Assembly (NCBI GenBank): GCA_016179955.1
Contig: JACPCD010000007.1
Location: 5,907-69,906, forward strand
Length of the DNA stretch: 64,000 nucleotides
Reading direction: 5' to 3'
DNA from: Candidatus Woesearchaeota archaeon
GTDB lineage: Archaea > Nanobdellota > Nanobdellia > Woesearchaeales > GW2011-AR9
The notes under the pieces are model-generated. The model ran no database searches. It was not told the DNA's origin and was given only the letters and a program-made list of their open reading frames with translations. Both the position numbers and the translations under genes were made by a program. Every line of letters begins with the position of its first letter. Positions within the stretch are counted from its first letter, which is position 1. Of the stretch, positions 17,285 through 64,000 are shown piece by piece.

Positions 17285-18757
17285 ATGAAAACATTTCAAA
17301 ATTTGGAAACAGAAAAAAGCTTTTTTAGAGAAAAATGTTGTATTAGCTACGGTGACCAAAAAGTCTACTTTAATGAAATTATCCTGCCAAATCAGTTTAA
17401 GAAACTGTATTCCAAAGAGCGAATAATGCTCAGATTAAAGAAAGCGATTAACACCGCCAGCAGCCGGCCATCCTTTAACATCCCTTCTTCGTTGTGCCAA
17501 AAAAATGGGATAGAACCAGGTAAGATAGTAATTCTCCGGATAACTAACTCAAAGAAAACCTACGAAATAATAACCAAAGTTGGTGCTTGGAGGAGGATAA
17601 ATGTACCAAGAGAAGTAATCGATAGTCTTAATATTGTCCACGAGCAAAAAGTAATCATCGAGATTATTAAAGAAACAGACCACCGCAATTCAGAAAAGAA
17701 AGATTTAGTTTCATTGCTTGAACATAAAAAGAATATTAAAATGATTAATAGAGAAAACAATTATGTAACGATTTACTCCAGAAGAAAATTTCCCATAACT
17801 TTGCCAAAGAAAGTGTCATTAGAACCTGAACTCATAGAGTGTTTTTTCTTAATCCATGGAGACGGCCATTATAAAGAAAAATTATTCTTCACCAACAAAG
17901 ATATTGGGTTACATGAGTCAGTTATTGATCTATTGCAAAAGTACTTGGGCATCCCGACTTCTATATGGAAAATGAGAATAAATTTACATGAATCTTACAG
18001 AGAGAAAGAAGCTAAAAACTTCTGGTTAAATAATTTGAAATTTGATAAGCGACAATTTTATCCATCCATATCGAGAACAAAATTCAATACTTCTGCTCAA
18101 GGAAATTTGAGAATAGTAATAGATTATCCTATTGTTTCGGAGATTTTTAGAAACATCTTTATTTATATGCAACAAAATCTAAACCGAAAATCTAGCTTTT
18201 ATGCACTGAATGGCCTGTTCGCTGCGGAGGGCGGAGCACAAATAAGTGAAGTTGGACTGCATAGAATAACTTTAAGCTATAATTTTAAAGAGAAAGAAAT
18301 GTTCCAGAAAATATTAAAAAATTGTAATGTTCTTCACTTATTTAAAGATATTGAACAAGGAAATAATCACGGCATTTTTGTGTTGGAAGGCTGGGAAAAA
18401 TTATACCTTTTCTTTAAAGAGTTTGCCATTAAAAAAATTACACCATTTAACTTCCATAACGCTCGAAAACAAAGAGCCATTAATGGGATGATAGAACACT
18501 CTTTTACCAAAACGATGTGCAAATACTTAATGGCATTAAGTCAAAACAAAAAATACACTGTAAAAGAATTTTCAGAAAAACTCCAGATGAGAGAAGATTC
18601 ATGTTTATCTACATTAAGAAAAAAACAATATTCACCATTTATCAACATCAGTGGGCTAGGGATAAATAAGCAACCTTTTTCTATTTCAATAACCAAGCAA
18701 GGTCAAGAATTATTAACCATTATTTCAACTATGCGAGGTGAAAAGATGCATGAATAA
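17285..18757 (+). CDS. LAGLIDADG-type homing-endonuclease-like protein (two degenerate LAGLIDADG motifs) inside an AT-rich insertion
   Basis: 490 aa. Motifs FFLIHGDGHY and LNGLFAAEGGAQ lie about 100 aa apart. GC content is far below the flanking genes. The ORF overlaps the cbf5 start by 20 nt. Confidence 0.5.
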   Translation: MKTFQNLETEKSFFREKCCISYGDQKVYFNEIILPNQFKKLYSKERIMLRLKKAINTASSRPSFNIPSSLCQKNGIEPGKIVILRITNSKKTYEIITKVGAWRRINVPREVIDSLNIVHEQKVIIEIIKETDHRNSEKKDLVSLLEHKKNIKMINRENNYVTIYSRRKFPITLPKKVSLEPELIECFFLIHGDGHYKEKLFFTNKDIGLHESVIDLLQKYLGIPTSIWKMRINLHESYREKEAKNFWLNNLKFDKRQFYPSISRTKFNTSAQGNLRIVIDYPIVSEIFRNIFIYMQQNLNRKSSFYALNGLFAAEGGAQISEVGLHRITLSYNFKEKEMFQKILKNCNVLHLFKDIEQGNNHGIFVLEGWEKLYLFFKEFAIKKITPFNFHNARKQRAINGMIEHSFTKTMCKYLMALSQNKKYTVKEFSEKLQMREDSCLSTLRKKQYSPFINISGLGINKQPFSISITKQGQELLTIISTMRGEKMHE

Positions 18758-19597
18758 GCAAATATTTGTAAAGAGAAAAAGTATTGGAATCTTTGGAAAA
18801 AAGCCAGAAGAAAGGACTCCAGAAGAGCTTATCCATTATGGTATTATCAACATAGACAAGCTAAAAGGCCCAACCTCCCACCAGGTTTCTGACTATGTTC
18901 AAAGGATATTAGGCATTACCAAAGCTGGCCACTCCGGGACCTTAGAGCTATAATCAAGGAAATCCTCAAGTGACTGGTGTTCAGCCTATTGCCTTAGACA
19001 GAGCTACGCGTATCACCCAGTTTCTGTTAGCCGCGCCTAAAGAATATGTTGGTATTATGCATTTACATAAAGCGGTAGAGGAAGAAAAAATAAAAGAAGC
19101 AGTCCACTCTTTTTTAGGTAAAATAATGCAGCTTCCCCCGGTGAAAAGCGCCGTGAAGCGGGTGCAGCGGGAACGAGAGATCTACGAATTTAACCTGCTG
19201 GAAATAAAAGACAAAGACGTGTTGTTCCGGGTACGATGCCAGGCTGGCACGTATATCCGAAAATTAGTCCATGATTTGGGGCAGGCATTAGGAATCGGCG
19301 CGCACATGACCGAACTTCGGCGAACCCAAGCCGGGCCCGGTAGAAAAAGCATTGAAGTATATCCCCAAATGCTGGATTCTTGACTCCACCATTCCCAGCG
19401 TCTCGCATGGGCGAGACGTGGCGATTCCCGGCATCAGCAAATTAGAGAATTTCCGAAAAGGGGAAATTGTGGCGGTAATGACTCTGAAAGAGGAATTGGT
19501 GGCTATCGGTAAGAGTATGATGTCGGCAGTAGAAATTAACACTCAGCAGAAAGGGATTGCGATTGATGTGGAGAAAGTGTTTAACCATACTACTTAA
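18738..19597 (+). CDS. cbf5: tRNA/rRNA pseudouridine synthase Cbf5 (TruB catalytic domain plus PUA); the frame is interrupted twice
   Basis: Three consecutive ORFs (18738-18953, 18970-19383, 19352-19597) are collinear with archaeal Cbf5 (GPTSHQV, KAGHSGTL | DPQVTGVQPIAL, AGTYIRKL, ELRRTQAGP | KCWILDSTIPSVSHGRDVAIPGI, PUA domain). Confidence 0.8.
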
Positions 19598-19630: not shown

Positions 19631-20350
19631 GTGCCCTTTCAAAGCCGTACAGGAGGATTAAAAACTATGACCCAATTACAATTAGACGGACCAACTGTAC
19701 ATACAACGTATTACGGCAAAAACGTAGAACAAATGCCTAAACTTCTTGCCGAGGGCAAAGAACCAATGAGTGTGGCTCATTTAATGGAACAACGACTGGC
19801 AGTACGAGACCAAGGAGTAAGTCCAGTACAGCATGACGCATGGTGGGGTAATTATTTTGACAATGCTGATTTATGGCTGCGACATCCAGACAAAGGCGGA
19901 AAAGTAGTTCCCTACAGCGCCGCAGTGCTTACCTTTCTTCAAGAACATCTTAAACCCGAAACCAAGTTAGTGGATTATGGAGTTCCCTTACCCGATGGAT
20001 TATACGAAGCCATGGACGGATTAGAATTGAAAACAGCTGATATTGGACGATTGCATTCACGAGGATATACCCCTACAGAAGCCAAGAAATCAGTGGTATG
20101 GAGAGAGTTGGCGCGGACACAAAAACGCTTAGATAACTATGTTGATGCTGTTGTTGTGGAAACGGGCAGAGAGCGAGACTTAATGAATACCTACTTTGGT
20201 GAAGCTTCAAAAGTTCCAACCGGGCGGCTTTGGTTTGTCAGCGGCAGGAACAACGATTCCCTTGCGGGTGGCAACTACAATCTTACCCTTGACTATGGTC
20301 GCCTGGTCGGGGTAGCGCCGGAGGCGCACGTCGCGCGCGCAAAAAAATAA
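19631..20350 (+). CDS. DGR target protein; the C-terminus carries the variable repeat
   Basis: 239 aa. The last ~32 codons (20220-20316) match the downstream template repeat, with every mismatch at a template adenine. Confidence 0.75.
   Translation: MPFQSRTGGLKTMTQLQLDGPTVHTTYYGKNVEQMPKLLAEGKEPMSVAHLMEQRLAVRDQGVSPVQHDAWWGNYFDNADLWLRHPDKGGKVVPYSAAVLTFLQEHLKPETKLVDYGVPLPDGLYEAMDGLELKTADIGRLHSRGYTPTEAKKSVVWRELARTQKRLDNYVDAVVVETGRERDLMNTYFGEASKVPTGRLWFVSGRNNDSLAGGNYNLTLDYGRLVGVAPEAHVARAKK
20220..20316 (+). repeat. DGR variable repeat (VR)
   Basis: About 97 nt aligned to TR 20542-20638. The 14 differences all fall at TR adenines (TR AAC/AAT codons versus VR AGC, GGC, CTT, GGT, TAC, TAT). Confidence 0.85.
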
Positions 20351-20541
20351 GAAGTCTACACCACCAATATCTTTTTATATCTCCTTCTTTTTTCTTCGTT
20401 GTCCCAGCATCAGCCATGAAGGCTGTACCATGAGCTGGACTACACGTCTTTCCACCACGGCAGCACGGCTGCTATAAAATACAGCCCCAACTTGATGCAT
20501 AGCACTGAAGGGGCAGTGATATAGTCCGTGGAAGGGCTACT

Positions 20542-20638
20542 CCGGGCGGCTTTGGTATGTCAACAACAGGAACAACGATTCCAATGCGAATGGCAACAAC
20601 AATCTTACCAATGACAATGGTCGCCTGGTCGGAATAGA
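20542..20638 (+). repeat. DGR template repeat (TR)
   Basis: Adenine-rich (many AAC/AAT codons). Non-coding on its own but in frame with and immediately upstream of the RT ORF. Confidence 0.85.
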
Positions 20639-20669
20639 CCTGCTCATTTTTGCTGGGATATTTTCCCCT

Positions 20670-22328
20670 ATGGAAATTTCAACCATTTCTCTTTTTGACC
20701 AGCTATGCCATTATGATAATTTATATCTGGCATATTGGAAAGCACGAAAAGGAAAGACACAGAGAAAATACGTTCTTGACTTTGAAGAAAAATTACAGGA
20801 AAATCTTCTGCGGTTGCAGCAAGAACTTCAGTCTCAAACATATCATCCGAAGCCTTTAGAAACATTCATTCTCCGCGATCCCAAGACCAGGAAAATCAGT
20901 AAGTCTGATTTTCGTGACCGTGTTGTCCATCATGCACTCTGCAATATCATTGAACCGTTGTTTGAAAAAGGCTTTATTTATGATTCCTATGCCAACCGAA
21001 GAGGAAAAGGAACATTGAAAGCAGTACAACGATTTGATGAATTTAAGAAAAATGTTTCTAAAAATAATACCACTATTTGTTTCGTGTTAAAAGCAGACAT
21101 TAAGCATTATTTTGAAACTGTTGATCATGATATTTTATTAAGTATACTGAGTCAGAGAATTCATGATGAGAAGGTATTATGGCTAACCAAGATAATTCTG
21201 TCCAACCATTCCACCACCGCCCCAGGCACAGGAATGCCTCTGGGCAATTTAACATCACAATTTTTTGCCAACATCTATCTTAATGAGTTGGATCAATTTG
21301 TAAAACATACTCTCAAAGCAAGGTATTACATTCGATACGTTGATGACTTTGTGATTCTTCACTCATCCAGCAATCTATTGAAAATGTATGAACAGAAGAT
21401 AGGTTTATTCTTGCGGGAAAAGTTAGCCTTAGAACTTCATCCGCACAAATCAAAAATTGTTAACCTAGAATCAGGCGTTCATTTCTTAGGATTCAGGATA
21501 TTCTATCATTACCGGCTCATTCGAAAGAAAAATATGCATAAGTCTCAACAAAAGTTTCGGCAGCTACAGCAAGAATATCAGGAAGGATTGCTTAATCGGG
21601 AGAAAGTTATCGAATATCTTGAAGGCTGGCTGGCGTTTGCATCACAGGCAAATACCTATAAATATCGAAGATGGTTAATACGGTGGTTTAACCAAGCTTT
21701 TCCATTGGAACAAAAGACACCCCTGGTGGTTTTACAAAAACATCAGAACCTGATGATAAAATCGGAAGAAAGCCAGATACAATTTACCGTTCAGAAAACA
21801 CTTCAATTATTCAGAAAATGTTGGTCTATTTCCCAAATCGCGAGGGCCAGAGACATTACAGAATCTACGGTGTGGGCCCATTTGGCAAATCTGGTCGAAC
21901 ATTATCAAATACCACTGGCTAAGGTAATTCCAAAAGAAAAAATTATTAAAATTCTTCCAAAAATTAGGAATGAAAAAGAAACGTTGAAAGAAATTAAACA
22001 GAAGATTAATGATGCTTCCATAACTTATGAGGAGATAAATTGCGGCCTCGCAAGTATAAAAGCAAAGAAGAAGAAAAGAGGTATTGTCCCCATTGTTTCA
22101 AACTTTCAGCGAACAAATTGTTATCGCAAATGTTATTTTAATCCTCATCAGCGAAAAACATGTGCAAAGAAATTTGAATTATTCTGTTCCCATAATTCGA
22201 CACTGAAAATGAACCCCCAAGAATTTGTGGATTTATTTCAGAATCATATGACCATTTGCGTTCTTCCGGTGAAAGAGAGAAAAAATTACGTTTCGTGGAG
22301 AGAGTTTAGGAAGAATACATGGAAGTAA
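20670..22328 (+). CDS. DGR reverse transcriptase with a C-terminal HTH and cysteine-rich extension
   Basis: 552 aa. RT motifs include YIRYVDDFVI (YxDD) and the DGR-diagnostic PLGNLTSQFFANIY (LGxxxSQ). The C-terminus has ISQIARARDITESTVWAHLANL (sigma-70 region 4/LuxR-like HTH) and five Cys. Confidence 0.9.
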   Translation: MEISTISLFDQLCHYDNLYLAYWKARKGKTQRKYVLDFEEKLQENLLRLQQELQSQTYHPKPLETFILRDPKTRKISKSDFRDRVVHHALCNIIEPLFEKGFIYDSYANRRGKGTLKAVQRFDEFKKNVSKNNTTICFVLKADIKHYFETVDHDILLSILSQRIHDEKVLWLTKIILSNHSTTAPGTGMPLGNLTSQFFANIYLNELDQFVKHTLKARYYIRYVDDFVILHSSSNLLKMYEQKIGLFLREKLALELHPHKSKIVNLESGVHFLGFRIFYHYRLIRKKNMHKSQQKFRQLQQEYQEGLLNREKVIEYLEGWLAFASQANTYKYRRWLIRWFNQAFPLEQKTPLVVLQKHQNLMIKSEESQIQFTVQKTLQLFRKCWSISQIARARDITESTVWAHLANLVEHYQIPLAKVIPKEKIIKILPKIRNEKETLKEIKQKINDASITYEEINCGLASIKAKKKKRGIVPIVSNFQRTNCYRKCYFNPHQRKTCAKKFELFCSHNSTLKMNPQEFVDLFQNHMTICVLPVKERKNYVSWREFRKNTWK

Positions 22329-26160: not shown

Positions 26161-26487
26161 TTGAGTTCTTCGCAAGGGTATACCATCAGTTTAGATGTTT
26201 ATGACGGCCATCATTTTGCTCAGGGGTATGGGGTTCCAGTCCCTCGACAAGGGTATGATTTAGGCTATTACTCTCGTGTCCTGGAACCAAGCGATAAAAG
26301 TATATTTAGAAAAAAGAGGGTGCTGGGGGCATTTGATAAAGGCAAAGACCGAAGAGCATTAAGGGCAGCCAGGAGAGAATACCAGCGAGTTTTGAAGAGC
26401 ATTGAGAGAGGAGAATATAAGATTACTTTATCTGGAAAACCGGGCACTGCAGAATTTTATTACGGCAACTATTTCCCCATTCTGTGA
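26161..26487 (+). CDS. Hypothetical protein
   Basis: 108-aa ORF with no recognised motif. A 17-bp tandem direct repeat overlaps its start. Confidence 0.3.
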   Translation: MSSSQGYTISLDVYDGHHFAQGYGVPVPRQGYDLGYYSRVLEPSDKSIFRKKRVLGAFDKGKDRRALRAARREYQRVLKSIERGEYKITLSGKPGTAEFYYGNYFPIL

Positions 26488-26589: not shown

Positions 26590-26952
26590 ATGTCAGCTGT
26601 AGCGACGAAGCAACTACGGAAAGAAGAAATTGCGTTAGACGATACTAAAGTTATAAGGCATAGAAGCGAATTAAGCGATAAGTTGGGGCTGGCTATAATC
26701 AAAGGCGGCACGTATTTTTCTATAGAATTAGGCTTAAGTAATACCAACGGAGAACAGTTATATCACCATATAAAAAAATACCATTTTTGGCCCAACTTTT
26801 TCCCCCGCCAAAATTTAAAACGTGAGACTGAAGAACAAGCCCGGGAAAAAGCAGAGACCGACTACCAGAAGTACCAGCAGAAACTTACGGAAGGAAAATA
26901 TCAACTGCATTTCTATGACACCGGAAAATTAGAAATAGAATTTACGGAATAA
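26590..26952 (+). CDS. Hypothetical protein
   Basis: 120-aa ORF. Confidence 0.3.
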   Translation: MSAVATKQLRKEEIALDDTKVIRHRSELSDKLGLAIIKGGTYFSIELGLSNTNGEQLYHHIKKYHFWPNFFPRQNLKRETEEQAREKAETDYQKYQQKLTEGKYQLHFYDTGKLEIEFTE

Positions 26953-55596: not shown

Positions 55597-56259
55597 TTAG
55601 AAATGGTTTACTGATACCCACTTACAAAATCCACATTCTTCAGAGGGGGCGGGAATTTCTGTTTCTAAAACTTGAATAGCTTTCTTAAAAATACTTTCAG
55701 CGTTTTTGATATTGACTTTAATTTTGACCAAATCAGTATTAAAACAAACATGACCACTCTCTTCAACTTGATGGGGATGATAAAAAACTAAATAAGTATA
55801 ATCTTCTGTTTCATAACCGTTTTTTCTTAAGAGAAAGTTGTAAATATCCATTTGATCTTGATAATGCTCGTGAGTGTCTTCTTTCAGAGGATAACCTCTT
55901 GTCTTATAATCTAAAACAACTAATTTCTTACCTTTTACAAGAATATTATCAATCGCTCCCCTGAAGAGATTGCCTTTTTTATCCGTCCATTGAATTCCTT
56001 TAAAATTGCTTCTCCAAACCTTGAGCAATTCTTCGTCATCAAAAAGTTTAACCTTTCCGTTTAACTCTTGAAGTTCTGGCGGAAGTTCTCCTTTTCTCAT
56101 AAAAGAATCAAAGTGTTCTTTCAGAATCCTATCCATTCCGCTTGGTAAAGAGGGAAAGATTGAATCTGGTCTTTTAATCCCTTTATTGAAATTAAGCCAG
56201 AAGCATCTAGGACAATCTTTCAATAAACTTAATGATGATGGGCTGAATTTGTAGGTCAT
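55597..56259 (-). CDS. Cas4/RecB-family PD-(D/E)xK nuclease (DUF83-like) with a cysteine cluster
   Basis: N-terminal DCPRCFWLN. GAIDNILV (motif II Asp), VVLDYKT (D-x-K motif III), HYQDQMDIY (QxxxY). C-terminal ECGFCKW plus an additional Cys give 4-5 Cys, consistent with an Fe-S cluster. Confidence 0.55.
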   Translation of the reverse strand: MTYKFSPSSLSLLKDCPRCFWLNFNKGIKRPDSIFPSLPSGMDRILKEHFDSFMRKGELPPELQELNGKVKLFDDEELLKVWRSNFKGIQWTDKKGNLFRGAIDNILVKGKKLVVLDYKTRGYPLKEDTHEHYQDQMDIYNFLLRKNGYETEDYTYLVFYHPHQVEESGHVCFNTDLVKIKVNIKNAESIFKKAIQVLETEIPAPSEECGFCKWVSVNHF

Positions 56260-56261
56260 TT

Positions 56262-58544
56262 TTAACTAAATATAATCTCATTTAATTTTTTTATTTCATC
56301 TTCAGTTAGCTTATTCCTTGCATTTGGATTTAGAATAATGTCTCCTTTCAGGATTATTCTTGGATTTGAATCTACAAATACCAATTCTTGTTTAAAATAT
56401 ATTGCTCCTGAAACTATGTCTGTATTTTTATTTTTGTGGGAAAGACTATCTTCTTTCCTGGTCATATACTCGTTGACAACTTTCCCTGTCTTCTTCTCAA
56501 TTTGCCATGTATAAGCAAGACTCCCTAAGAAAGTGTCTATTAATTGATGTTCATCAATCGTTGAATTACTCCTATCAATTACCACAAAAAACAGGTCTTT
56601 TCTTTTACCACTCTCAATCTCTTGTAACGTTTTATTTGCGAATAATTGCCTATATTTTTTATCAATAGTAGAAAATGCCTTATTTTTTAGAGCAACAGCC
56701 CCATTCGCCAATCTTAATTCTCTATCCATTTTTGGTCTGGTTATTTCAAAGTAAATATCTCTCTCAAATAGATTAACCTTCAAATCCAAATTTTTATCAG
56801 TCCTATTTGGGGGCAATGGTTCTATTGCTTTGATACTTTTATCTTTAAATCTGTTTATAAAAATTAACTCGCTGAAATAATCCCAGAAATAGTTATCGTT
56901 GGCAAAATTTTGTTTAATGCTTTTTGTAAGATGTTCTTTCTGTTTATACTTCTCATTCTTTTTCTGCTCAATGGTTGCTATGTCCTGATTTAGTTCATTC
57001 AGATATGCTTGAGGCCAGAATTTGCTTCTTGCAAAATCAAGTTTTAATGCTCTATCTAACTCGGAATTTTTTTCAGAAATATTAATGTCATCTAAATTAG
57101 GTTGTTCATTTTCTCCTAACCACAAAAGAGGGGTATATTGCTTCTTTTTCTTTGCTTCGCTGATTACATCTTTTGCATATCTATACAGGTCTGGATATTT
57201 CTTGAGATTATCCTCAATTTTGGTAAAATCATAATCTTCTTTTCTATTCCTAAACTGGTTGAGAAGTTCTCCTGCGAAATCTATTAAAAAATCATAATCG
57301 TCCCTAGTGAATGTTGATTTTTGTTTCCGCTCTCGATATTTATCTTTGTTAAAATCAATGAAACCTCTTTCTTTAGTCCTCTTAATTAAATTATCAATAA
57401 GCTTAGTTACAATATCTTTCTTAGTTATGTCTTGGTATACATTACCAATGATTACTTTGTTTAACTCAAAGAAGAGGTATTTCTCCTCTTTATCTGATAA
57501 ATCTAATTTTAATACTTGATCTAGAGCATAAGCTGTATGGTGTTTGGATAGGGTTTTAAATAAATGAGGGAAAATGATGATATATGATTTTGATTTTTTA
57601 GTTTGAATATTTTTATAATTCTCCAAGAAATATTTAGTAAATAGCTTGTTCTTCTTAACAAGTCCTTCTAATACCCAGTCAAAATGCTTTAATTTAAACT
57701 CTAAATCTCTATTTAACCAGTAGATAAATAAGTCTGATATTTGTGTGTATGGTTTTGGAAATTTTCTTAACACTTCTACGATTTTATCTATTACCACCTC
57801 ATCTAAATCTTTTGAATATTCAATAAGCTCTATAATTTGCTTTTGGTTTAGTATGTCCTGAAAAGTTAATCTATCAAAAACTAAGTATGTAATATTCTTT
57901 TCTTTTAGTTTCACTAACTCGAGAATTTTACTGTAAAAATAAGTCTTGTTTTTCTTATAGAATATCAAGCAGATATTAGTAAACTCTTGAAGCACTTTCC
58001 TATCTTGAGAATTAGATACTTTGTCAAGATAGGAGTAAATTCCCTTTGGTAACTTTGAAAAGTCGTATTTTACTTGTATTGCTTTCAATAGGGAATTTGT
58101 TAGGGGGTATTCAATCTTCTTTTTCAAGTGATTTAACAGGGCTTCGTTATTGTTTATTGAGAAGCCGCCCAGCATTAACCCGGAGATTACTTTAAAATCA
58201 TTATCTTTTGATTTAGTAATTATTCTTTCATAAAGAGAAATAGCAAAATCCGGTTTATTTTTTCCAATATCTTCCAATATTCTTAAAAATGGTCCCTGAG
58301 CCATGTCTCTCTTAATCTTTTCATAAATCTTCTCTAATAGTACAATATACTTGTCAGAGCTTTCTGCTAGGTCATAAGCGATTGCAGAAACAAGTTCAGA
58401 ATAACCCCAGAAATCTGATCCTGTGAGAAAATGCTCAATCAGTTTGTATTTTTCTTCATTAGGTAATTTAGACTTATGACTATTGTAAATCTTTATTTGT
58501 TCTTCAAATTTATAGTACTTATCTTTAAGTTCTTCTTTAATCAT
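56262..58544 (-). CDS. Large hypothetical protein (760 aa), no recognisable domain
   Basis: AT-rich codon usage. It overlaps both neighbours by a few nt, consistent with an operon with the MTase/helicase genes. Confidence 0.4.
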   Translation of the reverse strand: MIKEELKDKYYKFEEQIKIYNSHKSKLPNEEKYKLIEHFLTGSDFWGYSELVSAIAYDLAESSDKYIVLLEKIYEKIKRDMAQGPFLRILEDIGKNKPDFAISLYERIITKSKDNDFKVISGLMLGGFSINNNEALLNHLKKKIEYPLTNSLLKAIQVKYDFSKLPKGIYSYLDKVSNSQDRKVLQEFTNICLIFYKKNKTYFYSKILELVKLKEKNITYLVFDRLTFQDILNQKQIIELIEYSKDLDEVVIDKIVEVLRKFPKPYTQISDLFIYWLNRDLEFKLKHFDWVLEGLVKKNKLFTKYFLENYKNIQTKKSKSYIIIFPHLFKTLSKHHTAYALDQVLKLDLSDKEEKYLFFELNKVIIGNVYQDITKKDIVTKLIDNLIKRTKERGFIDFNKDKYRERKQKSTFTRDDYDFLIDFAGELLNQFRNRKEDYDFTKIEDNLKKYPDLYRYAKDVISEAKKKKQYTPLLWLGENEQPNLDDINISEKNSELDRALKLDFARSKFWPQAYLNELNQDIATIEQKKNEKYKQKEHLTKSIKQNFANDNYFWDYFSELIFINRFKDKSIKAIEPLPPNRTDKNLDLKVNLFERDIYFEITRPKMDRELRLANGAVALKNKAFSTIDKKYRQLFANKTLQEIESGKRKDLFFVVIDRSNSTIDEHQLIDTFLGSLAYTWQIEKKTGKVVNEYMTRKEDSLSHKNKNTDIVSGAIYFKQELVFVDSNPRIILKGDIILNPNARNKLTEDEIKKLNEIIFS

Positions 58545-59196
58545 TTTCCCACCTAAAGTAATTTACTATTTTGTATTTATTGAGTTTACGATTTTTTATT
58601 CTGAACAAATTACATCCAGAGCAGAATGGTGATGCTATGGTCTTATAATAATTATTTTTTGATAATTCATGAAGAACAAAGACCATTTGATCAAAAATAA
58701 GCTCAGGAGATGAATATCTCTCAATACATTGATTTAAGACATCTTGCTTTTGTTGGATTTCACCAACATCACCAAAAATTAATACAGCATCATTATAAAC
58801 AGAATAAGAACCTTTGTTAAAATAATTAATTTTGAGACTATTTATATCAATTAAGATGAACTGAATTTCAGAGATATGGATGATCTTTTGTATTTCTTGA
58901 ATTAATTTCCTATTTTTAAAATTGATCTTACAAAACTTTTTAACTTCCTCAAGATATTCAGAATTACCTGCGCCGGTAAAAACATATTTGTTCTCTATTT
59001 GAAATATTTTCTCTGTTTGATTTACCCCTATTGGTCTTTCAGCGATAGATATTGGATAATACTTTTCTCCACCAATATCTATCATATCTTTTATTGAAAT
59101 GTTGTTGTAATCTATAAGAGACCCAGATTCTTGCCTATCTGCACAAACTAACACTGATTTATCTTTCTTAAGATTTATAACAATAATTGCAGTCAT
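58537..59196 (-). CDS. Hypothetical protein (219 aa)
   Basis: No motif recognised. Its start overlaps the MTase gene stop (59193-59196). Confidence 0.35.
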   Translation of the reverse strand: MTAIIVINLKKDKSVLVCADRQESGSLIDYNNISIKDMIDIGGEKYYPISIAERPIGVNQTEKIFQIENKYVFTGAGNSEYLEEVKKFCKINFKNRKLIQEIQKIIHISEIQFILIDINSLKINYFNKGSYSVYNDAVLIFGDVGEIQQKQDVLNQCIERYSSPELIFDQMVFVLHELSKNNYYKTIASPFCSGCNLFRIKNRKLNKYKIVNYFRWEND

Positions 59197-62100
59197 TTTC
59201 CAAACTCCTCAACAATCTTGATCTCTTCCGGCGTCAGCTCGTATAATTTGTACACTAACTGGTCAATCTCTTTCTCCAAACGCTTTACTTTGGCTTGTTT
59301 GTCAGGATTGTCTAAATAATCATCGTCTTTGGTGATGGAGAGGATTTGGTCGACGAGGTGGATGAATGGTTTTTGCTGGTCAGGAGAAATTTCTTTAATT
59401 GGGATTTCTGATAATGGTGCGGAATATAATTCTAATAAATCGCCTTTTCTTTTTCCTTTATAATATAACCAACAAAAATATAATTTTGAATTCAATAGTC
59501 CAGTTATATACTTTAAGTTAACATCTTGAATTTTCTTTGTAATAAAGTAAACATCTCTTGAGGCGTACCAAGGGATATCGCAATATGCAAATTTATTCGT
59601 TTTTGATCTATAAGGGGTTAATATTTTTTCTGCCTCAAAGTTCATATCTAATCTAGGTGTATTTAATACCCACCAATTACCTCTTCTAAAAGCTCCTCTT
59701 AAATTAGCCCCTTTTCTAGACGAAATTTCTGTTTTAAACATAGATAAATACTCATAGATGCCTTTTAAATCAAAGATATTTTCTTTAATTTTCTCATGTA
59801 GATACAGTATGTACTGATTTGTACTTTTCTTAAAATAATATTTATCAATATCTGAATTTTTATAAAATGGTTTTAAATAATCTAATTCCTTTTTTGATTT
59901 AATTATTTCTTTTACTTTGTCACTAGAAATGACGTAAACCTTATCCATGCTACTTTCTAATCCGATTAATGTGTTGCATATACTTCCTAAGGGAACAGCA
60001 TTCTTATCTAATACCATTTTAGAAAATATTTGTTGAACTGGATTGTCAAAATTAACGTTGCCACTAACTCTAATGTATTTTTCATCACCTTCAAATAATT
60101 CTAATTGAGGAATATTATGATACTCTGTTTCCTCATCTTGCTTGAACAAAATAACATTTAGTATATTGGATGTTGCAAGTCCAGTTCTGTTTACTACAGA
60201 TGTAATTCCTAAAACAGATTTATTTTTTGATTTTGTAAGAAGAGTTATCATATTATGTTGACCTGCCGCAGATTCAAATACTTTTAATTCATTAAAATTA
60301 ATTAATTCTCTAATAACTGATCTTTGATATAAGTCAAATCTGAGTTTTTTAGCCCCTAATGCAGTTATAAAATAATTAGTAGTTATCATTGCAATTTGGG
60401 CATTATTTCTTGTCAAATTTAGTGCTAAATGAAAAAAGAAATAAAAATAATCCATTCTTCCAAGATAATACTCTTTTAAATTACCTTTCTGAACCTCAAA
60501 AAATACATCTTTATGTTTTCTTTCCCCAACATACGGCGGATTCCCTATCACCACATCAAACCCCGGATTCTCCCTTTGGAACACTTCTGCAAAATAAAGC
60601 TTCCATAAAAAGAATGGTTTAGATTTATTCTTCTTATATTCCTGCAATTTCTCAATAGCAGCACTATTTCCCTCTTCTTTAAGCGTCTCTTCAACCAATC
60701 CCCATTCTAACTTATCAATCTCTTCTCTTAATTGTTTTTTCAGCTTCCTATTTTGCTCATTGAAGAATTTTCTTTGTAATTCTTTTAACTCTTTTAATTT
60801 ACGCTGAGATTCTTTTATTCTTTTAGAAAGAGAATCATCTAAAGTAGCTTGAGAAGAAATTTTGTCTTTCCTTGCCTCTAATTCAATTTTCCGCCGTTCT
60901 TTTTCTAATTTCTCCAAATCCTTCTCAAAATTTTCTCCCTCGTAATCATCATACAATCTCTTAATTTTCCCACCTATTTCCGACAATTCTTTAGAATAAT
61001 CTCTCTTTACTTCTCCTAATAACTTCTCATCAAACAGCTTCTTGCCCTCAAATTCCTCCAGAAGTGAATTACCGCACATAATCTTATGGTCTAAGTTTGG
61101 CAGCGGTTCAATATTTCTGATACTTTCCTCATCTACTATTAAAGACAGCCAAAACCGCAATTTAGCGATATCAACTGCAGAACTATCAATATCCACACCA
61201 TATAGGCTGTTTTCGATAGCCTCACGCTTTAATTTGTAAGCGCTCCTATTTTTCTGCTCTTCCGGCTTAAAGAATATAGATAAAATCGACCTGGCTTTAA
61301 CAATTTCCGTCATCATTCCTACTGGAAAAGCTCCAGAGCCTACCGCAGGATCAACAACTTTAATCTCTTTTAGCAATTTATCAATCAATTCTTTATTTGC
61401 TATAATTGATTTAGGGAGATTTAACTTTTCTAATTCTCTATTTATTTCTTCTTCGAATACTTTAATAGAAATTATTCCTTTCTTTAATTTTTCTTGTTTC
61501 TTATCTATCTCTTGTAAAACACGAATAGAATTAGCTAGTGTCAAATCCCCTAATTGAATAAATTTTTCAATATCTTCTCTAACTATTTGGGTATTTGTCT
61601 CTAAATAATTAATCAGAGATTGCTGACACATATAATGGACAATCTCACGAGGAGTGTAAAAAGCTCCTTTAGACTTCCTGTCAATAACATCTAGTAGATT
61701 TTCAAATACTTTACCCAACATTTCAGGATCTACTGCTACCTCTTTTTCTAATGGCTCATCTTCTTTAACGGTAAAATTATAGGTATCAAATGTTTTGAAA
61801 ATATCCCTAAAGACATCATCGTCCAAATTTATTTTAGTGTCAATCCAATTATAATCATTTATTGGTTCGAATAAACCACCATTAAGAAATGGGATTTTAC
61901 ATTTAAACAAAGTGTGATAACCATCATCTCCTTCTCGGGGATTATTCAAAGCATCATAAAACAATGGTTCCAGAATATCATTAAAGAAATTCTTGTAAGT
62001 TATTATGTCTTTATCAAATAATTTCTTCATGAAATCTTTTGGACCAGTTCCCCATTCTTTGTTTATCTTCACACCAAGCCAACCTTTTTTCTGTAAGAAA

Positions 62101-62819
62101 TATAAGAATACTATCTGTCCTAATAATTTCTTAGAAAACTCGGTTGCAGAAATACTTTTCTCTTCAAATTCTTTCTGAACGTACTTATCATCACTAATCA
62201 CTTTCAGCAAAGAATCATTTAATTTTAAGAATAATTCTTTATACCGTTCAAAGAATTCTTTGGTAACTTTTTCAATACTAAACACACTTTCTAATTCTTG
62301 TAAAGTAGGGTTTCTATTTTCTTCTTCTACTAAGGCCAAAAACTGTTTTCTACAGGTATGATTCGGCTCATTTACCCCAACTAAGAACGAATATCTTTTT
62401 GCTGGGGTTAATTCTGGAATAACCTTGCCATTATCCGCTAAATTATACTCCATTTTAACGAAAGATAAACGCCAATCTTCCGGCTCATCACCGTAAAACG
62501 CCACTAAAGCCGCATCTTTGTGGTAATTACCGAGATACTTGGCAATAAAATTTCTTTGCATGGTTCTAGCTCTGTCCACAGAATCAGTTCTTTTCAGCTT
62601 AACGGTAAGAATATCCATCACTTTCTTATTAGAGTCAATATAACTGCCATAATTATGATAGGATTCAATATAATCTTTATATTCCCCCCACACTTCAGAA
62701 GTCTTTTCTTTAACTTCAAAACCGTTTAATAATTCTCGAACAAAGCGGAGAAAACGCCCTACTTCAAACTCTTGTCCAAAAGTTTCATTAAGTAAGTTAA
62801 CGGTTTGCTGTCTTTCCAT
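59193..62819 (-). CDS. Gamma-class N6-adenine DNA methyltransferase with a ~480-aa N-terminal region and a C-terminal TRD-like region (Type ISP/IIG- or PglX-like)
   Basis: 1208 aa. Motif I VVDPAVGSGAFPVGMM (Eco57I-like DPAxGSGxF) lies upstream of motif IV VIGNPPYVGERKHKD (NPPY), the gamma arrangement. A ~350-aa tail follows the catalytic domain. Confidence 0.75.
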   Translation of the reverse strand: MERQQTVNLLNETFGQEFEVGRFLRFVRELLNGFEVKEKTSEVWGEYKDYIESYHNYGSYIDSNKKVMDILTVKLKRTDSVDRARTMQRNFIAKYLGNYHKDAALVAFYGDEPEDWRLSFVKMEYNLADNGKVIPELTPAKRYSFLVGVNEPNHTCRKQFLALVEEENRNPTLQELESVFSIEKVTKEFFERYKELFLKLNDSLLKVISDDKYVQKEFEEKSISATEFSKKLLGQIVFLYFLQKKGWLGVKINKEWGTGPKDFMKKLFDKDIITYKNFFNDILEPLFYDALNNPREGDDGYHTLFKCKIPFLNGGLFEPINDYNWIDTKINLDDDVFRDIFKTFDTYNFTVKEDEPLEKEVAVDPEMLGKVFENLLDVIDRKSKGAFYTPREIVHYMCQQSLINYLETNTQIVREDIEKFIQLGDLTLANSIRVLQEIDKKQEKLKKGIISIKVFEEEINRELEKLNLPKSIIANKELIDKLLKEIKVVDPAVGSGAFPVGMMTEIVKARSILSIFFKPEEQKNRSAYKLKREAIENSLYGVDIDSSAVDIAKLRFWLSLIVDEESIRNIEPLPNLDHKIMCGNSLLEEFEGKKLFDEKLLGEVKRDYSKELSEIGGKIKRLYDDYEGENFEKDLEKLEKERRKIELEARKDKISSQATLDDSLSKRIKESQRKLKELKELQRKFFNEQNRKLKKQLREEIDKLEWGLVEETLKEEGNSAAIEKLQEYKKNKSKPFFLWKLYFAEVFQRENPGFDVVIGNPPYVGERKHKDVFFEVQKGNLKEYYLGRMDYFYFFFHLALNLTRNNAQIAMITTNYFITALGAKKLRFDLYQRSVIRELINFNELKVFESAAGQHNMITLLTKSKNKSVLGITSVVNRTGLATSNILNVILFKQDEETEYHNIPQLELFEGDEKYIRVSGNVNFDNPVQQIFSKMVLDKNAVPLGSICNTLIGLESSMDKVYVISSDKVKEIIKSKKELDYLKPFYKNSDIDKYYFKKSTNQYILYLHEKIKENIFDLKGIYEYLSMFKTEISSRKGANLRGAFRRGNWWVLNTPRLDMNFEAEKILTPYRSKTNKFAYCDIPWYASRDVYFITKKIQDVNLKYITGLLNSKLYFCWLYYKGKRKGDLLELYSAPLSEIPIKEISPDQQKPFIHLVDQILSITKDDDYLDNPDKQAKVKRLEKEIDQLVYKLYELTPEEIKIVEEFGK

Positions 62820-64000
62820 CTTTCATCATAAAATATTCTGAGAGAATAACCTCTTTTGGCCCGGAAGTGTTCGCACTGCTGACAAAAGTATCTTCAAAAA
62901 ATTCTGCATGAACTCCTGTTTTTATTACTGCCAATATTCTCAGAGGGCTGCTTTCTTTAGAGGTATTATTAAGAATATTTTTGATGGTTGGTTTAGGCAA
63001 AGAGCCTTCTTGCAATAATCTTAATACTTTTTGTAAGTAATCTTTGTCTTCCTCACTAAGCTCTTTGGCATTATTTAAAAGTGCTTTAACCAATTTAACT
63101 AGTCTTGCTTCTTGACCTCTATTTCCAGCGACATTAGTTTCCTCTTTTATAAACAACTCTTCAAAAGTTTTTTTATTAGCTTCTAGTAATGTATAAAATT
63201 CCGGCTCTAACTTTCCTGGTTTATCATCTTTTTCTGCGTGTAGCTTTTCAGCAGCAGTAAAAAAATCTACTTCTTTCACCTCTCCAACACTATTCCAGTA
63301 AATTTTACGTAATTTCCCTTTTCTAAAGAAAGTGAATAGCCCGGTACTCGTTCCCAATCGGGCAGTGCGTGATTTCTTAGGTAAGCGTTTAATTCGTTCA
63401 AATAAAGCATGATCATTATCTCTAATATCTCGCAGAAACGTTAAATAGCGCAATTCAACATCATCTTCTTCATTTTCTCCAGTTATAACCTCTTTGGAGT
63501 TGATTTTTCTAAATAAATCATGGGATTTGATTTCTTCATCCGTTAAAAGCCGAGCATCGTTACCAAGCATTTCAATAAATGCTTTAACTTTGGCTTCCGC
63601 TGCATCTTTAAGCTTAATTTCATTATCTACAGGTCCGGCAGGGAAGAAATTGTAAGTATAAATTTTATCAAATGGTAAATTCTTAGCCACACGATTAATT
63701 CTTCCTACTCTTTGCATCATTCGTACGGGATTCCATGGGATATCATAATTAATGACCACATTAGAACGATTTAAGTTAACTCCTTCAGATAGGATTTCAG
63801 TAGATACTAAAATCCTAATATCCTCTGCTTTATGTTTCACATTAGGATCAAAATTGTTGATAATTTTATCTCTGGTTGCTTCTGAGGAAATACTGGAAAA
63901 AGCTAAAACTTTATTTTCAAACTTCGGATTAAGTTTATCTTCCAGGTAAGAAGCAGTTTCTTTTGATTCTGTAAAGATAATTACTTTATTCTTCAGGTTT
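62797..64000 (-). CDS. SF2 (SNF2/Res-like) helicase, C-terminal RecA domain onward; the N-terminus lies beyond the window end
   Basis: The frame is open to the window edge (KVIIFTESKETASYLEDKL...). The helicase-C signature ILVSTEILSEGVNLNRSNVVINYDIPWNPVRMMQRVGRINRV is present. The 3' end overlaps the MTase ORF by 23 nt in another frame. Confidence 0.7.
   Translation of the reverse strand, partial: NLKNKVIIFTESKETASYLEDKLNPKFENKVLAFSSISSEATRDKIINNFDPNVKHKAEDIRILVSTEILSEGVNLNRSNVVINYDIPWNPVRMMQRVGRINRVAKNLPFDKIYTYNFFPAGPVDNEIKLKDAAEAKVKAFIEMLGNDARLLTDEEIKSHDLFRKINSKEVITGENEEDDVELRYLTFLRDIRDNDHALFERIKRLPKKSRTARLGTSTGLFTFFRKGKLRKIYWNSVGEVKEVDFFTAAEKLHAEKDDKPGKLEPEFYTLLEANKKTFEELFIKEETNVAGNRGQEARLVKLVKALLNNAKELSEEDKDYLQKVLRLLQEGSLPKPTIKNILNNTSKESSPLRILAVIKTGVHAEFFEDTFVSSANTSGPKEVILSEYFMMKDGKTANR

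Follow-up and report, generated by a model that had tools for sequence, protein, structure and literature searches.

The locus at positions 20670–22328 of a 64-kb window, the whole stretch of 64,000 nucleotides that was analysed, encodes an unusually long DGR reverse transcriptase (RT) that carries an additional C-terminal module and has no Avd gene beside it. Among archaea, DGRs are most abundant in DPANN. Avd is present in ~74% of DGRs and is therefore not obligatory for DGR status. In the survey of Wu 2018, 29% of DGRs are without accessory genes and ~20% of DGR RTs bear unexplained C-terminal extensions. The question raised by this locus is whether the extension, which a sequence-only reading of the DNA had proposed as a replacement for Avd, does the work of the missing protein or serves another purpose. 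Here, we examine the cassette, the protein, and their relatives in turn.

The DGR Cassette

The locus is a genuine DGR, with adenine-only mismatches between its repeats, an RT that matches the Bordetella phage enzyme bRT, and the RT motif LGNLTSQ. Its elements follow one another on the forward strand in the order target gene with VR and hairpin, RT-16 RNA, TR, and RT. The target gene (19631..20350, +), taken from the ORF listing, encodes a protein of 239 aa and contains the variable repeat (VR; 20220..20315, +) in its 3′ end, with 35 nt between the end of VR and the stop codon. VR is a 96-nt direct repeat of the template repeat (TR; 20542..20637, +), which was located by comparison with VR and is rich in AAC/AAT codons. 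The two are 85% identical over 96 nt; all 14 mismatches fall at adenines of TR, which holds 30 adenines, 14 of them changed. Both repeats end in the identical stretch GGTCGCCTGGTCGG. A GC hairpin, GCGCC-GGA-GGCGC, can be read off the sequence directly 3′ of VR (20315..20327, +), and the 3′ side of VR thus appears to have the IMH-like GC-rich end and hairpin expected of a DGR. Trinucleotide-loop hairpins have been described for Nanoarchaeota DGRs (Paul 2015, Fig. 3 legend). From the end of TR to the ATG of the RT there are 32 nt, the clade median being 31 nt. Pfam and NCBIfam searches with the target protein gave no match, and homologues of the target ORF adjoin the RT in 29 related loci. Judged from its sequence, the DGR looks active. 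The window also holds a neighbouring Cbf5 gene, which is broken over three frames.

The Reverse Transcriptase and Its C-Terminal Module

The RT ORF (20670..22328, +) runs uninterrupted for 552 aa, and an identical protein is present in NCBI (P0001). The RT core, residues 1–345 (20670..21704, +), consists of an N-terminal extension, fingers, palm, and thumb, as recognized with RVT_1, the bRT profile, and Foldseek. The Pfam family RVT_1 covers residues 72–277 (9e-25), while the RT profile covers the whole of bRT (8ub7_A, 328 aa; E 5e-59), which is the best PDB match of the RT by both sequence and fold. In Foldseek comparisons the core matches bRT with a TM of 0.83–0.85 at 30% identity. The palm motif LGNLTSQ lies at residues 191–197 and YVDD at 223–226, and the protein also matches the NCBIfam family group_II_RT_mat (6.7e-51). 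By itself, the core already corresponds to the entire Bordetella phage bRT.

The core is followed in the same ORF by ~207 residues. The sequence-only reading was right about the single ORF, the helix-turn-helix (HTH), and the cysteine-rich part of this extension, and it gave the size as ~170 residues. A linker (residues 346–372; 21705..21785, +), with no predicted secondary structure at residues 344–354, leads to an HTH_40 domain (residues 373–458; 21786..22043, +) and then to a basic alpha-helical Cys4 domain (residues 459–552, with the stop codon; 22044..22328, +). HTH_40 (PF14493), a LuxR/sigma-70 region 4-like helix-turn-helix, is matched at 1.6e-17 and 64 bits, compared with a cut-off of 27, over model positions 1–87 of 89, and is found in 49 of 49 aligned homologues. 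The same HTH also draws weaker matches to LuxR/GerE and sigma-70 region 4, in agreement with the earlier assignment to the sigma-70 region 4/LuxR type; in the homologues, LuxR/GerE, sigma-70 region 4, and winged-helix profiles match it in 22–31 of 49. The best Foldseek matches of this domain are the RecQ C-terminal domain 3iuo and the LuxR-type HTHs of NarL, VraR, and GerE, with a viral SNF2 helicase also among the best; the match of the module to 3iuo has a probability of 0.93 and a weak structural E-value (0.45). A literature search on HTH_40/PF14493 found nothing.

The AF2 model of the module is all-helical with a pLDDT of 92. The full-length model has a pLDDT of 84.9 and a pTM of just 0.59 although its domains are confident, which points to a flexible tether between RT and module. 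The module has a pI of 9.9 and the Cys4 domain alone a pI of ~10.2. Among 115 full-length homologues, C484, C488, C498, and C530 are invariant (C-x3-C-x9-C-x31-C), C458 is kept in 88%, and C506, the cysteine of 'CSHN', is variable, alanine being the commonest residue there (35%). In the confident AF2 model, the four invariant cysteines sit at helix ends or in loops. Of the five cysteines listed from the sequence, C506 therefore does not belong to the conserved set, and C530, in 'ICVLP', had been overlooked; the notion of a cysteine-rich domain stands. This domain of ~90 aa has no Pfam, PDB-sequence, or Foldseek match, the C-terminal 192 aa found nothing among PDB sequences, and no NCBIfam family covers the module. 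Neither the RT nor its C-terminal 172 aa matched the HRDC family at E ≤ 1. The Cys4 domain is a previously unnamed helical domain with a probable metal site, for zinc or an Fe-S cluster, predicted from the cysteine pattern. The domain and structure prediction suggested in the sequence-only reading thus yields HTH_40 and an all-helical Cys4 domain after the RT core.

Absence of Avd

On the forward strand, no ORF of 40 aa or more lies between the stop of the target gene and the start of the RT. Across the 64-kb window, 20 plausible small and medium ORFs gave no match to bAvd (PF22296) or 23S_rRNA_IVP (PF05635) at E ≤ 1; as a positive control, the BPP-1 Avd matches PF22296 at 7e-36. The claim that the locus has no Avd gene is upheld by this result, and the wider scan for a distant avd homologue, proposed at the same time, detected none in the window. 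Pfam likewise found neither family among 99 and a further 34 small ORFs flanking related RTs, where at most 1 of the 99 could carry an undisplayed Avd match. These negatives cover Pfam-detectable relatives within the flanks examined, and a very divergent Avd may escape them. In a BLASTP clustering of 956 neighbouring ORFs, no conserved small accessory ORF emerged; apart from the target family, the clusters comprised nothing but scattered housekeeping and toxin-antitoxin genes. The module itself matches neither PF22296 nor PF05635, and the Avd fold is absent from the best 50 of the 139 PDB matches that Foldseek gave for it, all of them weaker than E = 0.001.

Distribution of the Fusion

Comparison with other archaeal DGR RTs, which the sequence-only reading had recommended, reveals that the extension recurs. 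The RT-HTH_40-Cys4 fusion is shared by more than 115 protein clusters from Woesearchaeota and Nanoarchaeota; 115 homologues from independent assemblies have lengths of 530–612 aa, the same domain order, and 54–81% identity over their full length. The unusual length of the RT is therefore a conserved property. The fusion itself is not unique and is already visible in database annotations as RVT_1+HTH_40.

At least 584 loci were found in the search for relatives. A set of 80 related DPANN loci falls into 16 with long RTs (HTH_40+Cys4), 6 with medium RTs (HTH_40 only), and 58 with short RTs (RT only). The short RTs have 335–375 aa, and their cores are 50–64% identical to that of the RT described here. 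Their loci form complete DGRs that share the compact target-RT-16-TR-RT layout, and the module is absent from every frame of their flanks. Avd was found in none of the three classes in these 80 loci. Because short relatives without the module are also without Avd, Avd-independence is not tied to the extension; from the sequences compared, it looks clade-wide. The module probably does not stand in for Avd, and the 58 short sister loci, with neither, weaken the earlier proposal of a replacement.

One feature of the cassette is associated with the extension, namely the strand of TR relative to the RT. The two lie on opposite strands in 8 of the 17 loci whose RT has the extension, compared with 1 of 38 with a short RT (Fisher p = 1.5e-4); perhaps 3–4 independent evolutionary events underlie this association. 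Roughly half of the loci with the extension, the one described here among them, are collinear like the short-RT loci.

Parts of the module also occur without an RT. The Cys4 domain exists as a stand-alone protein of ~100 aa, and stand-alone HTH_40+Cys4 and Cys4-only proteins are found away from RTs, next to SWIM-domain, toxin-antitoxin, integrase, TrmB, and Peptidase_M78 genes. The idea that such copies represent a split accessory gene was rejected because they adjoin SWIM, YgjP-like, TPR, and AbiE genes and not RTs. A 528-aa ORF beside the RT of locus L002 and a 528-aa SWIM/DUF6880 neighbour of a stand-alone module proved unrelated, their equal length being a coincidence, and a 113-aa ORF that precedes a Cys4-only protein, considered as a split HTH_40, is not HTH_40. 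The stand-alone neighbourhoods fit a generic regulator as well as a DGR factor.

RT-16 RNA and the Template Repeat in the RT Frame

Directly 5′ of TR, a covariance model identifies the RT-16 RNA motif (Rfam RF03019), a structured RNA (20410..20545, +), scoring 56.3 bits, above the gathering threshold of 50, over the full-length model. The RNA fold of 20351–20760 has a z of −4.35. The position and strand of RT-16 relative to TR are the same in 31 of 37 related loci from all RT classes, and this motif is the part common to the long, medium, and short classes.

The TR is in frame with the RT ORF, and the last in-frame stop is the TGA at 20517–20519, so the observation that no stop intervenes is true. 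The N-terminally extended RT that had been considered plausible on this ground did not hold up. No ATG, GTG, or TTG occurs in the RT frame between this stop and 20670, and the conserved N-terminus of the RT family starts directly after the ATG at 20670. Among 41 related loci, 17 have no stop in this frame across TR, compared with an expected 1/3 (p = 0.17), which is a chance level, and translation of TR into the RT was rejected. The accompanying suggestion of a TR-containing transcript is sound in itself, TR and RT on one transcript being ordinary for DGRs, and marks no special feature of this locus.

Possible Roles of the Module

We consider it slightly more probable than not that the locus belongs to an Avd-less, DPANN-specific DGR clade in which certain lineages have acquired the module as a dispensable addition that binds nucleic acid and is not a one-for-one substitute for Avd. 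Avd-free operation would most plausibly depend on the core of the RT together with RT-16/TR RNA, which may suffice because sister RTs without the module are also without Avd. The HTH_40-Cys4 module, a predicted nucleic-acid binder joined to the RT core by a flexible linker, would most likely hold the RT on nucleic acid of the DGR, be it the TR RNA or the VR/IMH DNA target. Such tethering would be needed when the RT cannot load onto the TR of its own mRNA, and the excess of opposite-strand TRs among extension-bearing loci argues for this action in trans. A more far-reaching version is rather improbable. In it, the module would serve in recognition of the DNA target and in integration, as a metal-containing and possibly Fe-S, redox-gated DNA binder; it would deliver the RT-cDNA complex to the VR/IMH hairpin, and the RT would no longer need to be translated off the transcript with TR. 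Together with RT-16 RNA, the module would constitute protein-minimal, Avd-free mutagenic retrohoming in DPANN archaea.

Functional replacement of Avd would mean that the fused HTH/Cys module offers in cis a basic nucleic-acid-binding surface by which the template:primer duplex is brought into place for an otherwise inactive RT. Such a role is suggested by the inactivity of bRT in the absence of Avd, by the lack of Avd in the window and beside the long or medium homologues, by the association of HTH_40 with HRDC in helicases, HRDC proteins being a known alternative DGR accessory, and by a module pI close to the Avd average of 9.5 (Wu 2018). The basic pI is, however, all that the module and Avd have in common, since they are unlike in sequence and fold. 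The module is C-terminal, after the thumb, whereas Avd contacts the N-terminal extension of bRT; the medium class does without the Cys4 domain; and the short sister loci, with their closely related cores and identical layout, do without both module and Avd. We regard replacement as unlikely, though as deserving some weight.

The module could instead be a transcriptional or redox regulator, in which the HTH and a Cys4 sensor (Fe-S or zinc) on the cassette promoter gate DGR expression or activity in response to the state of the cell and take no part in reverse transcription or homing. The transcription-factor-like profile matches among the homologues, the closeness of the fold to NarL, VraR, and GerE, and the stand-alone copies placed like small regulators beside TrmB, Peptidase_M78, toxin-antitoxin, and SWIM genes are in line with this, as is the view that cellular DGRs are mostly silent. 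A repressor covalently fused to a catalytic RT would nevertheless be unusual, HTH_40 is typically appended to DNA helicases and not to transcription factors, and regulation leaves the opposite-strand TR association unexplained; we hold a purely regulatory role to be quite unlikely. An artefact, whether a frameshift, a misassembly, or read-through that joined the RT to an unrelated downstream gene, has a negligible probability. The broken Cbf5 neighbour makes local sequence errors or decay conceivable, but the RT is one uninterrupted ORF with an identical protein in NCBI, and the fusion conserved in domain order and length across 115 homologues from independent assemblies refutes such a reading. 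For the same reasons, continuity of the ORF and conservation of its length, the extension is not a separate frame-shifted ORF, an eventuality that the sequence-only reading had itself raised.

The three RT classes have experimental value. They form a natural series of RT, RT+HTH_40, and RT+HTH_40+Cys4, all with RT-16 beside TR and all Avd-less, which allows direct tests of the minimal needs of an Avd-free DGR and of the gain from a fused DNA-binding/metal domain. The series bears on how Avd-less DGRs achieve cDNA synthesis, delivery to VR, and integration there. A compact single-protein DGR is also of interest for targeted-mutagenesis tools.

Comparison with Known Systems

The closest characterized system is the Bordetella phage BPP-1 DGR (mtd-avd-TR-brt; PDB 8ub7), to whose bRT the RT core is homologous over its whole length. 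Both have adenine-specific TR-to-VR differences, a VR in the 3′ end of the target with a GC-rich end and hairpin, and a structured RNA flanking TR. Unlike BPP-1, the locus described here is without Avd; RT-16 lies 5′ of TR, in the place that avd occupies in BPP-1, whereas the BPP-1 spacer of ~140 nt (RT-10) lies 3′ of TR, and the TR-RT gap here is just the short one given above. Furthermore, bRT has no DNA- or RNA-binding appendage, in contrast to the C-terminal residues added here.

Elsewhere, HTH_40 follows the HRDC/RQC regions in RecQ-like and PIF1-like helicases. It occurs in the C-terminal region of the RecQ P0185 and, in the PIF1-type helicase P0201, after an HRDC-like stretch recognized by eye. 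The module shares HTH_40 family membership with its best structural match, 3iuo, the C-terminal domain of Porphyromonas gingivalis RecQ, and differs in that its HTH_40 stands between a reverse transcriptase and the Cys4 domain. DGRs with an HRDC accessory (Architecture C, such as that of Treponema denticola) are similar in that they, too, rely on a small helical domain that binds nucleic acid and derives from the C-terminal part of RecQ-type helicases; their HRDC, however, is a separate gene of a different Pfam family and near neutral, whereas the module here is basic.

Group II intron IEPs such as LtrA have an RT of related lineage and the same succession of RT-thumb, DNA-binding region, and cysteine-containing domain. 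Unlike their D/En region, the tail of the RT described here has no HNH signature and no conserved catalytic His or Asn: Pfam gave no HNH match in the RT or its homologues, and no His or Asn is invariant in residues 459–552. The tail is also predicted to be all-helical, in contrast to the beta-beta-alpha-metal fold of En. The likeness to the D/En region, drawn by comparison of domain order, is a positional analogy only.

With the Architecture A1 DGRs of Wu 2018, the locus shares the target-TR-RT order and the absence of an accessory gene. The C-terminal RT extensions reported there reach up to ~150 aa and contain no recognised motif, whereas the longer extension here can be assigned to HTH_40 and Cys4. 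The present clade differs from Architecture A1 in general in being DPANN-archaeal and in carrying RT-16 RNA.

The DGR locus and its surroundings

The window is archaeal chromosome carrying ribosomal protein operons, aminoacyl-tRNA synthetase genes, and a Cbf5 gene. The target gene of the DGR (19631-20350) encodes 239 residues and contains the variable repeat (VR; 20220-20315, 96 nt) at its end. Directly after the VR lies the hairpin GCGCC-GGA-GGCGC (20315-20327), of a trinucleotide-loop type known from Nanoarchaeota DGRs (Paul 2015). The template repeat (TR; 20542-20637, 96 nt) is composed of AAC/AAT codons and differs from the VR at 14 positions, all 14 of them TR adenines. The reverse transcriptase (RT) is encoded by a single uninterrupted frame of 552 residues (20670-22328, + strand), and the protein is 100% identical to one that NCBI lists for a Candidatus Woesearchaeota MAG.

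Immediately upstream of the target, a Cbf5/TruB-type pseudouridine synthase gene (18738-19597, +) is broken across three frames, encoding DKCLD (18738-18953, +), TruB_N plus TruB_C_2 (18970-19383, +), and PUA (19352-19597, +) fragments; it could be a pseudogene, a case of programmed frameshifting, or a product of assembly errors. An AT-rich stretch between this gene and that of ribosomal protein L31e holds a 490-aa ORF (17285-18757, +) with no Pfam match; its 3' end runs into the beginning of the Cbf5 fragment. Elsewhere, the region at ~55600-63840 (- strand) has a GC content of ~30% compared with ~47% in the rest of the window. It encodes a PD-(D/E)XK nuclease (55597-56259), two ORFs of 760 and 219 aa without matches, a 1208-aa Eco57I/MmeI-type methyltransferase (59193-62819), and a helicase C-terminal fragment (62797-63840), all on the - strand; the region probably represents a restriction or defence island gained by horizontal transfer.

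Architecture of the RT

Residues 1-345 form a complete DGR reverse transcriptase, to which the remainder is extra. RVT_1 (Pfam) spans residues 72-277, and an NCBIfam group-II-type RT plus thumb aligns to residues 32-341. The family profile covers residues 4-315 of the 328 in the RT of Bordetella phage BPP-1 (bRT, 8ub7_A; E 5e-59), superposing the full-length model on bRT gives a TM-score of 0.83-0.85 at 30% identity, and the DGR hallmarks LGNLTSQ and YVDD are both found. A reading of the sequence without database searches had called this RT unusually long, which it is, and had noted that the TR lies in its frame. That frame is indeed open from 20520 through the TR; the N-terminally extended protein then held plausible is not supported: the open stretch contains no start codon and the conserved N-terminus of the family starts just after the ATG at 20670. 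Among related collinear loci, 17 of 41 have the RT frame open through the TR against an expected one third (p=0.17), and a meaningful in-frame TR was rejected in favour of chance.

The extension consists of two domains. The first is HTH_40 (Pfam; residues 373-458; 64 bits, cut-off 27), with secondary matches to LuxR/GerE and sigma-70 region 4 on its helix-turn-helix, which bears out the type of HTH originally perceived. The second, termed Cys4 (residues 459-552), is strongly basic (pI 10.2) and, across 115 homologues, has the invariant cysteines C484, C488, C498, and C530 (C-x3-C-x9-C-x31-C) and conserved W478, R486, K487, Q494, R495, K501, F519, F523, P533, K537, and W543. The Cys-rich domain recognized earlier is real, but C506, then cited, is not conserved and the invariant C530 had been missed. 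AlphaFold2 predicts residues 361-552 to be a confident all-helical unit (pLDDT 92, pTM 0.78). In the full-length model the domains are confident, the pTM is 0.59, and residues 344-354 are unstructured, so the module is predicted to be flexibly tethered to the RT core. Foldseek against the PDB matched the first half weakly, to 3iuo, a RecQ C-terminal domain (probability 0.93), and to LuxR-type HTHs, and the Cys4 half not at all; a BFVD fold search matched the HTH half to a giant-virus SNF2-type helicase, and a PDB sequence search returned no match for the module. These analyses show the module to comprise a basic HTH domain of the helicase-associated type and a Cys4 helical domain.

Distribution of the module

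The RVT_1-HTH_40 fusion is present in all 120 best protein-database matches to the RT, 115 of which, from assemblies of Woesearchaeota or Nanoarchaeota, are 530-612 aa long and 54-81% identical from end to end. A long ORF arising as an artefact, with the extension in truth a separate frame-shifted ORF, has a vanishing probability: the ORF is uninterrupted, and a frameshift is excluded because full-length homologues share the fusion.

Residues 361-552 were also searched against 1.84 billion cluster representatives, yielding 193 clusters. Some are fragments of module-bearing RTs; others match HTH_40 alone, in the C-terminal part of helicases 560-1000 aa long, among them a RecQ (P0185). In a PIF1-type helicase (P0201), HTH_40 directly follows an HRDC-like stretch, as read by eye only. 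The whole module also occurs in genuine stand-alone proteins of ~200 aa at 28-29% identity (P0151, P0153), and a Cys4-only family of ~100 aa exists (P0231); the two domains are thus autonomous units. In the Nanoarchaeota neighbourhoods examined, no RT adjoins the stand-alone module or Cys4-only genes (L005 1196-1804, L006 534-1145, L007 757-1377, L090 5001-5312, L092 5001-5291). Their neighbours include SWIM-domain, YgjP-like hydrolase, TPR, AbiE, HEPN/nucleotidyltransferase, integrase, and Peptidase_M78 genes. Genes for 528-aa SWIM/DUF6880, 235-aa SWIM, CcbP-like, and toxin-antitoxin proteins also occur there. The HTH_40-Cys4 module of the DGR RT occurs widely and can already be seen in automated annotation; no description of it was found in the searchable literature.

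Absence of Avd and comparison across the clade

The stretch from the target stop codon to the start of the RT contains no + strand ORF of at least 40 aa, and none of 20 plausible small or medium ORFs in the whole window matches bAvd (PF22296) or 23S_rRNA_IVP at Pfam E<=1, whereas the BPP-1 Avd (bbp7) used as positive control matches PF22296 at 7e-36. Avd is likewise absent from three homologous loci on long contigs, and the reported lack of this accessory gene holds. Two adjacent small + strand ORFs, 26161-26487 (108 aa) and 26590-26952 (120 aa), have no Pfam match, are not Avd-like by Pfam, and look alike by eye in their C-terminal stretches (…EYQRVLKSIERGEYKITL… / …DYQKYQQKLTEGKYQLHF…).

When GTDB species, each represented by one genome, were scanned with the family profile, at least 584 loci emerged, and all that were listed belong to DPANN (Woese-, Pace-, Nano-, Micr-, Aenigmat-, and Altiarchaeota). 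The RTs of the top 80 share 48-64% identity with the query in their cores and form three length classes: long (16 loci, ~545-570 aa, RT+HTH_40+Cys4), medium (6 loci, ~450-495 aa, RT+HTH_40), and short (58 loci, ~335-375 aa, RT only). In most short loci the DGR is complete, its TR/VR pair is A-only, and the layout matches that of the window; the TR ends a median of 31 nt before the RT ATG in related loci and 32 nt before it here. Purpose-built HMMs for the HTH and Cys4 domains, run against all six-frame ORFs of at least 50 aa at all loci, matched nothing but the RT ORFs of long and medium loci, with no split or neighbouring module copy beside short RTs. In Pfam scans of small ORFs, 99 of them within 1.5 kb of short RTs and 34 near long or medium ones, Avd was absent among all families matched by at least two ORFs, and BLASTP clustering of 956 flanking ORFs revealed no conserved small accessory gene, the target family being the only conserved one.

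The sequence-only reading had suggested that the module takes the place of Avd. Strict replacement is unlikely: short sister RTs without the extension also lack Avd, so doing without Avd looks to be a trait of the whole clade, whether or not the RT is extended. A rough NJ tree of RT cores places the RTs that carry the extension mostly on one side, and we conclude that the extension is an add-on gained or kept by part of the clade. Domain prediction, structure prediction, and comparison with other archaeal DGR RTs thus confirm the original observation, and its interpretation is partly supported.

Possible function of the module

TR and RT occupy opposite strands in 8 of 17 loci with the extension (L008, L010, L013, L015, L017, L021, L023, L024) versus 1 of 38 short-RT loci (within L027-L087; Fisher p=1.5e-4, uncorrected for phylogeny and reflecting few independent events). 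Five of the eight are convergent, with the TR beginning 6-78 nt beyond the RT stop, and three are divergent. The target is also opposite the RT in these loci. TR and RT are collinear in the window itself, which makes this clue an indirect one. Nearly every short RT is thus translated from an mRNA with the TR ~30 nt upstream, which often does not hold for long and medium RTs; this favours a tethering role, in which the module would recognise TR RNA or VR/IMH DNA in trans. On balance we lean towards the overall reading of which this role is part. That the module instead acts as a transcriptional or redox regulator seems distinctly improbable.

RT-16 RNA and comparison with known DGRs

Between VR and TR, and abutting the latter, an Rfam match to the RT-16 motif (RF03019; 20410-20545, +) scores above the gathering score, and the RNA of 20351-20760 folds far below shuffled controls (z = -4.35). 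Of 37 related DPANN loci, 31 have RT-16 directly 5' of the TR and on its strand (L001, L004, L008, L010, L013, L016, L019, L021-L025, L027, L028, L030, L035, L036, L039, L044, L045, L047-L049, L053, L056, L057, L063, L069, L074, L080, L084), across all three classes and whatever the RT orientation. The conserved unit here is target-VR, RT-16, and TR, which we infer to be the likeliest partner for the RT core in a mechanism that dispenses with Avd.

The element in the window is an Avd-less, RT-16-associated DPANN DGR whose RT bears an HTH_40-Cys4 module. Avd-less DGRs are an established category: avd is present in 74% of DGRs, and Architecture A (TR-RT without an accessory gene) accounts for 29%; ~20% of DGR RTs are extended at the C-terminus by as much as ~150 aa, in which no motif is recognisable (Wu et al. 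2018). The original description presented the motifs RT-1 to RT-19 as RT-associated and linked only RT-10, the BPP-1 spacer 3' of the TR, to a DGR; it made no such link for RT-16. The known structured RNA lies 3' of the TR in BPP-1 as RT-10, but 5' of the TR in the DPANN loci as RT-16.
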